Assembly (NCBI RefSeq): GCF_011045215.1
Contig: NZ_CP049201.1
Strand: one strand, 5' to 3'
Origin: Escherichia coli
Lineage (GTDB): Bacteria > Pseudomonadota > Gammaproteobacteria > Enterobacterales > Enterobacteriaceae
Length of the DNA: 64,000 nt
Under the pieces are notes generated by a model, which ran no database searches, was not told the DNA's origin, and worked only from the letters and a program-made list of their open reading frames with translations. This document shows, in pieces, positions 7,657-11,126 of the stretch. Every line of letters starts with the position of its first letter. The first letter of the stretch is position 1. The position numbers and the translations under genes were made by a program.

Positions 7657-8874
7657 TCAGTGCCATTTCAGCCTGTTTTTGATGCTAAACACCTCCGTTT
7701 TCAGTTCACTGACCGTCATGTATTTTCCCCGCTGTTCATCCAGACGGTTCAGGCGCTCAGCCAGCTGCTGTAAGCGGGTCATGCCTTCGTTCCAGCCCGT
7801 CATTGCCTCTTCCGGGAGCGCACGACTCCTTATGCTCTTCTGCCAGTTATCCACCATTTCCTGAACACGGGGATTGCCGGGGAAAAGTCCCCTCAGTTGC
7901 TGCAGCAGCTGCGCACTGCGTTGCAGATTGTATGCCGGGGGTAATTGTGTCAGCCGCGTTATCTGCTGACCGGAAAGGGTTATCCACTCTGACGCATGAT
8001 TTAACAATGAGGATGTTCTGCTGAGCTGTGTCATCTGGTCTGCTGAAAGCACATCCGGTGGTGGTGTCAGCAGCGCCCTGAGTTGCTGCTCTGCCGGTGA
8101 TGACTGTGTCAGAAACTGCCATCCCGGAATGACCACGCTGACAGTCAGCAATGCCGCACAGACACCAGCCAAAAACGGCTTCAGAAACATGGACGGGAAT
8201 TTCTGAAGGGAGGGTGTGGGCTCTGTTTTTGTTTCAGAAACAACATACACCAGACGGGAGTGCGGCAGGGGCTGATGTTCCTGTACGTCCCGAGCATCAG
8301 ACCGGAGTGCCTGAGCCGGAAGGGTTACCGGAGACGACGCTTCGCCCTGTACAGGCTGGTTCTCCAGACGGGTGATATATCCCTTCACCATGGCTTCCGG
8401 CAACGCCACTTTACTGCTCTGTTTAAGTTCGTGCCGGGCCAGTGTGTCACTCAGTGCCTTCAGGAATGTTTCGGTCTGATACAGCAGGGGCAGATTGTCA
8501 CGGTCGTCCGGTGGCATGGCCCGGAGCGTTTTTTGCAGACGGTTGAACAGACCGGTAATAATTTCCAGCCGGGCATGGGTATTCAGCGGCCACATCACTG
8601 ACCAGTGATGCCGGGTCAGCGCCACAATCAGAGCCAGCCCTTCATTCAGGCCACTTAACCCTGTTGTATGCATCCGGGCAATGGTGTACCAGGATGCCGT
8701 CTGCAATTCCACGCCATTGTGTTCATACAGACGCAGGCAGAGCGTTTCCACGTAACGCCAGTCAACATCCGGGCGTGCCGGGTGGGTCAGTTTGCTGATT
8801 TCATCGCGCAGGGCAGCATAATCCGGTAATGACCGGGGGTCACCACCGGTTTTTAGTTTCACTTCAGAAGTCAT
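7657..8874 (-). CDS. ImpA_N-domain (TssA/VasL-like) protein with a central transmembrane helix
   Basis: 405 aa; N-terminal DWRYVETLCLRLYEHNGVELQTASWYTIARMHTTGLSGLNEGLALIVALTRHHWSVMWP follows the ImpA_N pattern; hydrophobic segment FLKPFLAGVCAALLTVSVVIPGW. Confidence 0.55.
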   Translation of the reverse strand: MTSEVKLKTGGDPRSLPDYAALRDEISKLTHPARPDVDWRYVETLCLRLYEHNGVELQTASWYTIARMHTTGLSGLNEGLALIVALTRHHWSVMWPLNTHARLEIITGLFNRLQKTLRAMPPDDRDNLPLLYQTETFLKALSDTLARHELKQSSKVALPEAMVKGYITRLENQPVQGEASSPVTLPAQALRSDARDVQEHQPLPHSRLVYVVSETKTEPTPSLQKFPSMFLKPFLAGVCAALLTVSVVIPGWQFLTQSSPAEQQLRALLTPPPDVLSADQMTQLSRTSSLLNHASEWITLSGQQITRLTQLPPAYNLQRSAQLLQQLRGLFPGNPRVQEMVDNWQKSIRSRALPEEAMTGWNEGMTRLQQLAERLNRLDEQRGKYMTVSELKTEVFSIKNRLKWH

Positions 8875-8928
8875 CGGCAGATTCAGTGTTGCTGTATTAA
8901 ATCATGATTAACAGTTACGGAAAGAATG

Positions 8929-9234
8929 TCAGTGTGATACCGGGACCCGGGAAAGGTATTCCACTGCACGGATGATTGCCGGTGTCACATCCCACCGCCG
9001 TTTCAGAACCGGTAACAGCTCATTAAGGTTTCTGATATAACGCTCAGTGAACAGCCGTTGTCCGTCCCGGGTTAAATGAAAACCTGACTGATTACAGGTA
9101 ATGGTGATATGACAGGTATCGTTGCCAATATATACGGCTTCCTGAGGTCTGAATCTGACATTCCAGTGCCAGGAGTACGGAGAGTGGTTCAGATAAAAAA
9201 GACGCATCTGAATATCGTTAAATAACGGGTTCAT
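8929..9234 (-). CDS. hypothetical protein (101 aa), same strand as and tightly spaced between its two neighbours
   Basis: ORF with 54-65 bp gaps to flanking genes; no recognisable motif. Confidence 0.4.
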   Translation of the reverse strand: MNPLFNDIQMRLFYLNHSPYSWHWNVRFRPQEAVYIGNDTCHITITCNQSGFHLTRDGQRLFTERYIRNLNELLPVLKRRWDVTPAIIRAVEYLSRVPVSH

Positions 9235-9299
9235 GGCGAATTAAATAAACCTGATAATAACAGTATGGTGAAAGCCCGGAATAAAGAAATAATCCGGTA

Positions 9300-11126
9300 T
9301 TATGCAAAATCCTCAAGGTGGCGGCTGATACTGTTTTCACGGTAACAGGTCACCAGTAATTCACGGGTTGCCCGGGTAAACGCCACATAAAGCACCGGAA
9401 TCACTTCAGACTCATCCGCTGCACCAGAGTGAACGAAAGACGCATTGATAACTGCCACATACGGGAACTCCAGCCCCTTGCTGCTCTGGTACGTCAGTAA
9501 ATGCACCACATCCTTACGTCGCGAGTATGTCTTCTTACCTTCACTGTCAAAGCAGGTGGCAAAAGGTATCCCGCGTTGTGTCATAACCTCTTTCAGTTGT
9601 TTCACTGAAAACTCTGCCGGACACAGAACAGCCATATCACTCCAGTGACCGCACAGGGCATGGCGTTTCTCCAGCCAGTCTGCAACCTGTCTGGCTTCAT
9701 CACGTTCAGAAGCACAACGCAGGATTTCCGGCTCTGTGCCCTCTTCACCACCCGCCTGTGGCTGAACGAGTGGTATTTCACGGTTCTGATGTTTTTCAAA
9801 ATACTCGCGGGAGAATGCATAAGCAAAGTGCAGAATGCGTTTCGGATTACGGTAATTGACCGGCAGGACAGAAGTGCGTCCCTGCGCCTGAATCCCCACA
9901 CTGGCCAGAGAAAAGTTCAGGGCCCGCTCCCGTCGGTAAATGGACTGGGCATCATCGTACATCAGGAGCAGTGAACGGGATGCGTTATCAAACAGACGGG
10001 CAATCAGGGCCAGCCAGCGACTGTCAAAATCATGCCCTTCATCCACCAGTACAGCATCATATCCGGTTTGGGTGATTTTTCCGCTGTTCACGGCCTCTTC
10101 CAATGCACTGAAGCATTTCTCAGGATATTCTTTTCTGTCTGCCGTCACCTGAATACCGTGGCGTTTTGCCATTGAGGCACACCAGCTGTGAAAATGAGAT
10201 ACCGTAACCCGTGACCTCAGCCCTCTGGCCTCAATGCATTCCCGCAGATAGCTGGCCAGGGTAATGTTGTAGCACAACACCAGAATCTTTCCGGACGTGG
10301 TTTCAGCCAGGTAAAGGCAACGGAACAAAAGAATCATGGTTTTTCCGGAACCGGCCACACCATGAATGACACGATGCCCGTCACCTATATTTCTGGCCAG
10401 AATCTCCTGCTGAATATCCATGATTTTGATTTGTGAGTTCTGTTTCACGGTCACTTCAGGAAACAGATGGGCGCGCAGAATATCTCTCATCCGGGGTGTC
10501 ACCCGGGTTCTGAACCCCGTGGTAAACATCCCGGCAATTTTTTGCCGGAATACCTCAGGTAAAACAGACTGCGTCATTTCATCCTGACAGATTGTCTGTG
10601 CTGAAGGAAAAATCTTTTCCACCGCATTCTCATCATTCCCTGTCAGTGCCTTCAGTTGCTGACGGGTAATGCGGGTAAACACCACACCATACGCCCAGGC
10701 CAGGTTCAGCCGTCCCTTATACTGACCGTCATTCTGCCGTAAGCACGGGTCAGCAGGTAAGGCATTAACCGTATCACAGGCATAACGACGAACCTGTACC
10801 AGCGGATTTATTTCTGATTTCAGAAGACCGTCGGTTTCCAGTGTAACCTGCTCCTGATTTGCTTTACGTAATGTGGATACAGTCCAGTCCTTGACCTCCA
10901 GAAATACCAGCCCGTTATCCGGGTCAATAATGACAAAATCCGGATGTCGGTTTTTCCGTCCCACCGGGATATCGTACCAGACAAGGCAGTCATCATTCAG
11001 AAAGCTCTCCAGTCGTGAAGCCACCCTCCTCTCCCCTGGCGTCATTCTCTCCTCAGTGGACGCTGATATATTTATCAGTTTCGCCATAACATACTCATGC
11101 TCCAGTAAAATCATAACCGTCGACAT
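9300..11126 (-). CDS. NERD-like nuclease domain fused to UvrD/PcrA-like SF1A helicase
   Basis: 608 aa; N-terminal HPDFVIIDPDNGLVFLEVKDW (NERD/PD-(D/E)xK-like); Walker A GVAGSGKT; Walker B VLVDEGHD; C-terminal YQSSKGLEFPYV (UvrD_C-like). Confidence 0.75.
   Translation of the reverse strand: MSTVMILLEHEYVMAKLINISASTEERMTPGERRVASRLESFLNDDCLVWYDIPVGRKNRHPDFVIIDPDNGLVFLEVKDWTVSTLRKANQEQVTLETDGLLKSEINPLVQVRRYACDTVNALPADPCLRQNDGQYKGRLNLAWAYGVVFTRITRQQLKALTGNDENAVEKIFPSAQTICQDEMTQSVLPEVFRQKIAGMFTTGFRTRVTPRMRDILRAHLFPEVTVKQNSQIKIMDIQQEILARNIGDGHRVIHGVAGSGKTMILLFRCLYLAETTSGKILVLCYNITLASYLRECIEARGLRSRVTVSHFHSWCASMAKRHGIQVTADRKEYPEKCFSALEEAVNSGKITQTGYDAVLVDEGHDFDSRWLALIARLFDNASRSLLLMYDDAQSIYRRERALNFSLASVGIQAQGRTSVLPVNYRNPKRILHFAYAFSREYFEKHQNREIPLVQPQAGGEEGTEPEILRCASERDEARQVADWLEKRHALCGHWSDMAVLCPAEFSVKQLKEVMTQRGIPFATCFDSEGKKTYSRRKDVVHLLTYQSSKGLEFPYVAVINASFVHSGAADESEVIPVLYVAFTRATRELLVTCYRENSISRHLEDFA

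Follow-up and report, generated by a model that had tools for sequence, protein, structure and literature searches.

In the window analysed here, a stretch of 64,000 nucleotides from Escherichia coli (contig NZ_CP049201.1 of assembly GCF_011045215.1), three adjacent genes encode a nuclease–helicase with NERD and UvrD domains, a small protein of 101 amino acids (orf101) and a membrane-anchored protein with an ImpA_N domain. These genes most probably (roughly 0.7) represent the tail of a Sci-1-type type VI secretion system (T6SS) cluster that has lost its machinery and that carries, as cargo, an autonomous nuclease–helicase, itself probably directed against mobile genetic elements (MGEs). The gene order of intact clusters is ...tssF-tssG-tssJ-tssE, followed by variable cargo, the NERD/UvrD helicase, (orf101) and tagA, and the window retains only the 3′ tail of this series. 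The arrangement is already known, as it is intact in the reference enteroaggregative E. coli (EAEC) strain 042 and TagA has been characterised, and it is not a new three-part system.

All three open reading frames (ORFs) lie on the minus strand: the helicase at 9300..11126 (608 aa as called mechanically), the small conserved orf101 at 8929..9234, and a C-terminally truncated allele of tagA, with the domain order ImpA_N, transmembrane segment and VasL, at 7657..8874 (405 aa). The short spacers on which the first-pass annotation had based its proposal of a co-transcribed operon were borne out by measurement, at 65 bp between helicase and orf101 and 54 bp between orf101 and tagA. Neither spacer holds a terminator-like site, and a sequence scan gave 13 promoter-like sites against 8.2 ± 3.0 expected, which is not an enrichment.

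Identity and truncation of tagA

The 405-aa ORF matches ImpA_N (PF06812) at 7.6e-17 over residues 8–109 and the NCBIfam TssA N-terminal model at 8.8e-24, and it contains one hydrophobic/transmembrane segment at residues ~228–256 (19-residue Kyte–Doolittle maximum 2.09), so that Pfam profile searches and hydropathy confirm both the ImpA_N assignment and the transmembrane helix that had first been read from the bare sequence. A VasL domain (PF12486, 1.7e-28) occupies residues 302–402 but covers only model positions 2–101 of 147, and is therefore incomplete. The combination of ImpA_N, a membrane segment and VasL is the definition of TagA (TsmA), a class B ImpA_N protein (PMC6745524), and by this domain content the third ORF is tagA, predicted to encode a T6SS sheath anchor. 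According to the literature, TagA is an accessory protein that attaches to TssA and keeps the extended T6SS sheath fixed to the membrane by its distal end (PMC6745524, PMC6450956, PMC6730261, citing Santin et al. 2018), a role that others have demonstrated with the proteins of EAEC and V. cholerae (VCA0121) (PMC6745524, PMC6450956). EAEC 042 is the strain background of the published TagA work.

Full-length T6SS-linked homologues of TagA comprise 450–456 aa and are 88–97% identical to the window protein at the amino acid level. The window tagA lacks 88 bp that are found in every other allele; the junction lies at ~7681–7683, and the frameshift leads to a stop at 7657, giving 405 instead of ~454 aa, with ~50 residues (the final third of VasL) gone. 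An out-of-frame leftover of the original tagA 3′ end remains on the minus strand at 7598..7656, 3′ of the deletion, and window positions 7686..7515 match locus L002 at 9667..9838 (92%) and locus L001 at 15172..15001 over a stretch that spans the final ~90 nt of full-length tagA and continues past its end.

Decay is also seen in other relatives, namely as a tagA frameshift in L005 and as truncation of the helicase by IS66 in O157, and real lesions of the tagA region are found only in L005, the window and O157. The Prokaryotic Genome Annotation Pipeline (PGAP) splits the intact tagA of 042 (455 aa, L122 4070–5437) and of strain PAR (454 aa, L001 15105–16448) into three pieces, labelled as an ‘ImpA N-terminal’ pseudogene, a ‘POTRA domain-containing protein’ or ‘ShlB/FhaC/HecB’ pseudogene, and a ‘VasL domain-containing protein’. 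The three-piece tagA of these two strains is an annotation artefact, and, since translation gives intact ORFs in both, the idea that E. coli loci with the helicase mostly have a damaged tagA was dropped. Such splitting makes T6SS tails look more decayed and could mislead surveys of T6SS integrity.

A tssE pseudogene and the edges of the remnant

The ImpA_N gene had initially been reported as standing without any other T6SS gene, which is not borne out: a frameshifted pseudogene of tssE, encoding a T6SS baseplate subunit, lies at 11993..12326 on the minus strand and marks the upstream edge of the remnant. It was detected by tblastn, with the TssE proteins of L007, L002, 042, L013, L093 and L114 as queries, as two high-scoring segment pairs in different frames (12326..12153 and 12124..11993) at 41–64% amino acid identity, and a ~90% identical sequence of O157:H7 is annotated by PGAP as ‘TssE, frameshifted; internal stop’. 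In a nucleotide comparison, positions 12114..11919 of the window match L002 7774..7973 at ~77%, reaching 9 bp beyond the tssE stop. TssA, TssF, TssG, TssJ and VgrG had no matches anywhere in the 64-kb window, and the product of the truncated tagA would thus have no local machinery to serve.

Both breakpoints are evident from comparison with T6SS loci without the helicase. Nucleotide homology to these loci runs from exactly the orf101 ATG (9234) to 7680, at 92–96%, and resumes upstream in the 3′ end of tssE. As homology breaks at the orf101 ATG and at the end of tssE, window positions 9235–11918 occupy the place of the ~66-bp tssE–orf101 spacer. This segment contains the helicase and, between it and the tssE pseudogene, a further cargo gene at 11223..11798 (minus strand) for an Ail/Lom (PagC/OmpX-like) outer-membrane beta-barrel protein, with NCBIfam matches to PRK15240 (2.3e-36) and OmpX (1.9e-31).

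E. coli chromosomes match this region of the window at 96–97% identity. In strain PAR the corresponding region lies inside a tRNA-Phe (pheV) island and adjoins a CdiB/CdiA locus, while in O157:H7 the same block is found in the pheV island together with espL2, nleB and nleE, an island that we take to be O-island 122 (OI-122). The pagC-like gene is annotated as Ail/Lom family in both, and the tssE–tagA slot of 042, Cedecea and Pantoea is without it. The suggestion that the ImpA_N gene could be a stranded T6SS remnant is hence supported, given that orf101 and tagA close T6SS clusters, that the trio closes Sci-1 of 042, and that a tssE pseudogene lies upstream.

Intact clusters with and without the helicase

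In helicase-less T6SS clusters of E. coli and Salmonella the order is TssA-TssF-TssG-TssJ-VgrG-effector/immunity-TssE-orf101-TagA, with TagA as the last gene, and the interval between tssE and tagA holds orf101 in L002–L004, L007–L011 and L116–L119. Many T6SS clusters bear tagA without the helicase. In 042, the complete Sci-1 cluster starts with tssB-tssC-tssK-tssL-(OmpA family)-hcp-tssH-...-vgrG-tle1-tli1-PAAR-tssM-tssA-tssF-tssG-tssJ-tssE and ends, after tssE, with a YdcA-like gene, a GIY-YIG gene, the NERD/UvrD helicase, orf101 and tagA, followed by ibrA/ibrB/perC-like genes. The presumed three-gene operon is therefore the closing trio of a cluster already known.

The same slot is occupied outside E. 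coli. A Cedecea neteri cluster (L013) has the order TssM-TssA-TssF-TssG-TssJ-TssE-helicase-TagA, with a helicase (65% identical) that is the closest of the 80 species-level loci in our survey of helicase homologues, which was drawn from the 600 pattern matches listed from a genome-wide scan. The tssE–helicase–tagA slot also occurs in a Cedecea-like locus (L093; helicase 60%) and on the Pantoea vagans megaplasmid pVag1 (L114; 61%), and the Cedecea and Pantoea loci are without orf101. Homologues of the window genes therefore co-occur elsewhere, within the Enterobacterales; strict co-occurrence of all three fails, as the helicase is found alone, orf101 and tagA are found without the helicase, and the helicase and tagA are found without orf101. 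Helicase and tagA owe their adjacency to inheritance from T6SS clusters and did not come together by chance as the island decayed; by sequence comparison their pairing is older than E. coli.

Similarities along these clusters are mosaic. The core proteins of the Cedecea-like L013 and L093 are 84–96% identical, yet their helicases are only 64% and their TagA proteins only 48% identical; the L013 helicase is closest to that of Pantoea (71%), but the TagA and the core genes of L013 most resemble those of L093. Likewise, TssA, TssF, TssG and TssJ of two E. coli T6SS clusters are 48–63% identical, yet TssE is 94% and TagA 88% identical. This pattern indicates that the T6SS tail recombines between clusters that are otherwise divergent, and that helicase and TagA do not follow one another. 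One old insertion, inherited with the cluster, accounts adequately for a helicase upstream of tagA in three genera.

The helicase and its distribution

The helicase has Pfam matches to NERD (2.9e-10) and to UvrD/UvrD_C/AAA_19, and it matches the PADLOC profile PDLC01087 ‘C3a187 NERD+UvrD’ at 2.7e-141 over residues 14–607 (profile positions 1–556 of 559). Its catalytic motifs are intact, comprising D50..E64-V-K66 (PD-(D/E)xK), GVAGSGKT, VLVDEG, DDAQSI and AFTRA (numbering from M14); they cover the nuclease, Walker A/B and motifs III and VI of superfamily 1 (SF1), and the catalytic positions are invariant or nearly so across 33 homologues. Translation most likely starts at 11087 (MAKLIN...) and not at 11126, because all alleles begin there and homology to copies in other contexts starts at 11089. 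The ratio of nonsynonymous to synonymous substitution (dN/dS) against five other alleles is 0.09–0.18, indicating purifying selection in every context.

The cargo helicase is a single polypeptide that joins a PD-(D/E)xK nuclease to a UvrD-like motor of SF1. It most likely acts alone as an anti-phage or anti-plasmid nuclease–helicase that would load on foreign or aberrant DNA, translocate with ATP and cut the DNA. A function in defence, this mechanism and independence from TagA are inferred. Among solved structures the helicase had only distant matches, to PcrA/UvrD/Rep, and a phage origin was rejected, with only weak partial matches (27–28% identity) in three phage records.

Within E. coli, the helicase is found in several contexts. 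In very many assemblies (1066 and 3758 blocks in the index) it stands alone after a gene for a phosphoadenosine phosphosulfate (PAPS) reductase/DUF3440 protein with no T6SS gene nearby, and homology between this context and the window is confined to 11089..9300, that is, to the helicase ORF alone. On IncF plasmid p14EC033c it occurs without TagA or orf101, among toxin–antitoxin genes. Of 5426 complete E. coli genomes, 614 carry at least 80% of the helicase and 596 carry the helicase–orf101 junction; the E. coli copies are 93–98% identical at the nucleotide level and, on that similarity, count as a single evolutionary origin. The PAPS-reductase context is represented by L094–L113, where the helicase directly follows a 406-aa PAPS_reduct/DUF3440 gene on the same strand (e.g. 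L094 4552–7746). Downstream of tagA, 042, L005 and L120 also have a gene for a related PAPS reductase (ibrA). In O157:H7 FRIK2069 (L012 12490–13287) and related strains the helicase is cut after ~266 codons by IS66 and is annotated by PGAP as a NERD domain pseudogene.

Beyond E. coli, the survey extended to distant homologues. In 79 of the 80 loci (among the matches listed) the helicase is 38–43% identical, mostly from other Proteobacteria, and has no TagA, orf101, TssE or Ail within 8 kb. When ORFs within 5 kb of the helicase were clustered across 81 loci, no family was present in more than 7, and the 7 loci that share one neighbour family are syntenic close relatives; a conserved partner gene was thus not found. 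The helicase therefore appears to work without TagA or a T6SS.

Among known defence systems, a PADLOC search with the three proteins and their neighbours assigned the helicase only to C3a187 and, in part, to GajB, and returned nothing for orf101 or TagA. Gabija was rejected, as the similarity to GajB models is confined to parts of the helicase (best 5.6e-21) and the window neighbours tested had no GajA match. Nhi was likewise rejected, with a match of only 3.6e-05 over residues 237–267.

The small gene orf101

Profile searches with orf101 returned no match in Pfam, PADLOC or NCBIfam. The gene has a dN/dS of 0.075–0.09 against the Salmonella allele, and its AlphaFold2 model is confident (pLDDT 89.2) and describes an alpha/beta protein of one helix, five strands and two helices. 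Foldseek found no significant match to this model in the PDB, and its matches in AFDB50 were uncharacterised proteins only, among them Q1DE95 of Myxococcus xanthus (32% identity). It is pseudogenised by a stop in L120 and by a frameshift in L005. orf101 is a real gene, small, conserved and associated with tagA, and may represent an unrecognised TagA-associated family.

Alternative explanations

Several observations weigh against a decayed tail with an independent helicase as its cargo. In four diverged lineages (helicase 58–71%, TagA 35–48% amino acid identity) the helicase directly precedes (orf101-)tagA on its upstream side, and the end of the helicase gene overlaps the beginning of tagA by 23 bp in Pantoea and by ~14 bp in C. 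neteri, a layout more suggestive of an operon partner than of random cargo. Several helicase-linked loci have an intact tagA, either with no T6SS core genes in the sequenced neighbourhood, as in PAR, or with a cluster that IS66 interrupts upstream of tssG, as in L120, so that decay is not universal. In addition, no published defence activity was found in the literature for the NERD+UvrD family, and C3a187 is listed by PADLOC only as a candidate or associated family.

The helicase could instead be a genuine T6SS accessory, transcribed together with tssE and tagA and put to use during T6SS firing, for example in the repair or restriction of DNA that DNase effectors have attacked or in the processing of DNA released from killed neighbours, in which case its persistence after T6SS loss would be secondary. 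The retention of the tssE–helicase–tagA slot in E. coli Sci-1, two Cedecea-like clusters and Pantoea, the overlap of helicase and tagA ORFs in two clusters, and the presence of DNase effectors (Col-Pyo_DNase, VRR_NUC and Tox-REase-5) in sister E. coli T6SS clusters are all consistent with such a role. However, the many tagA-bearing clusters without the helicase, its purifying selection on a plasmid and in the PAPS-reductase island without nearby T6SS genes, the incongruent similarities of helicase and TagA (with the L013 helicase nearest Pantoea at 71% and its TagA and core nearest L093) and the absence of a T6SS link in the helicase family at large (among the matches listed) argue against it, and we consider it unlikely. 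Somewhat less likely still is that the NERD-UvrD helicase is a conserved, unstudied component of Sci-1-type T6SSs across the Enterobacterales whose activity is coupled to T6SS firing or to membrane-bound TagA. Were this so, it would amount to, for instance, an anti-MGE or DNA-damage defence co-expressed with contact-dependent attack, of which the window would be the surviving half.

A further possibility is that the three genes form one module in which TagA, with orf101, tethers or activates the helicase at the inner membrane to meet incoming phage or conjugative DNA, akin to the suggestion of the first-pass annotation that the ImpA_N protein is a membrane sensor or effector partner of the helicase. 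All three lie on one strand, the spacers between them are short and free of terminator-like sites, the helicase–orf101 junction recurs in 596 of 5426 complete E. coli genomes, and helicase–TagA adjacency is kept across genera. These 596 genomes nevertheless count as one event, since the E. coli copies share a recent origin (93–98% nucleotide identity); orf101 is missing from the Cedecea and Pantoea versions and is a pseudogene in L120 and L005 while the helicase is intact; and tagA is truncated in the window and frameshifted in L005. For TagA, a role in the T6SS has been demonstrated with the EAEC orthologue (PMC6745524, PMC6450956). A partnership is not supported by the solo copies of the helicase in the island and on the plasmid, nor by the 79 of 80 distant loci (among the matches listed) without TagA, nor by the tagA clusters that are often without a helicase, and we regard the module as improbable.

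That the nuclease–helicase is a toxin delivered by the T6SS, with orf101 as its immunity protein, is very improbable, as a nuclease-containing protein encoded inside a T6SS cluster with a small ORF next to it would fit, but the helicase does not adjoin vgrG, hcp or PAAR, has no recognisable T6SS delivery domain, occurs without orf101 in Cedecea, Pantoea, the solo island and the plasmid while orf101 occurs in helicase-less clusters, and, as an ATP-dependent protein of 600 aa, would be atypical as an effector.

Neighbouring genes and defence context

Genes resembling known defence components flank the T6SS tail. In 042 and L120 the gene upstream of the helicase encodes a GIY-YIG/T5orf172 protein (L122 420–1664; L120 3178–4422) that matches PD-Lambda-1 at 5e-88, and the gene after tagA in L120 (8253–10133) encodes an OLD-family nuclease that matches Old (1.2e-67) far better than GajA. 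IbrA, a PAPS reductase with weak similarity to BrxP, and an IbrB-like gene also follow the T6SS tail. In the window, just downstream of tagA (4349–7030, minus strand), lies a gene for an SF1 helicase of 893 aa (AAA_11/AAA_12) with a C-terminal DUF2726 domain, whose best PADLOC matches are to the helicase regions of Mokosh MkoA/MkoC (5.5e-44). At the level of profile matches, the PD-Lambda-1-like, Old-like and MkoA-like neighbours are a defence-island signature. The Sci-1-type T6SS tail, from tssE to tagA and just beyond, thus gathers PD-Lambda-1-like, NERD-UvrD, Old-like and IbrAB genes, and in this respect behaves as a defence hotspot. The gene for the 893-aa helicase adjoins a tagA fragment in strain 1070/13 and is possibly another defence gene.

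On the other side of the remnant, a contact-dependent inhibition (CDI)/two-partner secretion locus (12712–25096, minus strand) abuts the tssE pseudogene. It encodes a CdiA-like protein of 3078 aa (13568–22804), a 175-aa ORF (22820–23347) that corresponds to a PAR gene annotated as ‘toxin-activating lysine-acyltransferase’, and a CdiB/ShlB-type transporter (23357–25096), while small ORFs downstream in the locus may be toxin-tip or immunity genes. Further from tagA, window positions 3004–3739 are 87–89% identical to the IbrB/PerC-family region 3′ of tagA in L120, a match which indicates that the window is a rearranged version of that island. An IS4 transposase gene (1497–2912) lies near this stretch.

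Recognition of the locus as the probable tail of a decayed cluster removes a false lead, in that an ImpA_N protein beside a helicase without a T6SS need not be taken for a new membrane-sensor system. The helicase, present in ~11% of complete E. coli genomes, under purifying selection and uncharacterised, is a cheap candidate for a single-gene defence assay.

Comparison with known systems

A search of the literature found nothing relevant on the helicase in T6SS clusters, on ImpA_N together with NERD, or on EC042_4550. Among described or candidate defence genes, the nearest are single-protein nuclease–helicases and UvrD-type helicases (Nhi, GajB and the candidate family C3a187), with which the window protein shares the fusion of NERD/PD-(D/E)xK and SF1 helicase. 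Gabija and Nhi differ from the window helicase, in that it has no adjacent GajA and its match to Nhi spans only ~30 residues. [quoted passage not shown]

Close genomic counterparts include OI-122 and the pheV islands of enterohaemorrhagic E. coli (EHEC) O157:H7 and other E. coli, which share the block of tssE pseudogene, Ail/Lom gene and NERD helicase near tRNA-Phe. In O157:H7, IS66 removes the 3′ half of the helicase and no orf101 or tagA is annotated past it, whereas the window keeps the helicase and orf101 whole. The intact counterpart is the Sci-1 (T6SS-1) cluster of EAEC 042 in the pheU island (NC_017626.1, ~4,879,000–4,885,500), where helicase, orf101 and tagA stand in the same order as in the window, with amino acid identities of 96% for the helicase, 97% for orf101 and 89% for TagA (over 425 aa), the 042 TagA being intact at 455 aa. 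In 042 a full T6SS precedes the trio, and YdcA-like and GIY-YIG (PD-Lambda-1-like) genes follow tssE; in the window, by contrast, the preceding T6SS is reduced to a tssE pseudogene, a pagC-like gene stands in place of the YdcA-like and GIY-YIG genes, tagA is truncated, and the location is a pheV-type island beside a CDI locus.

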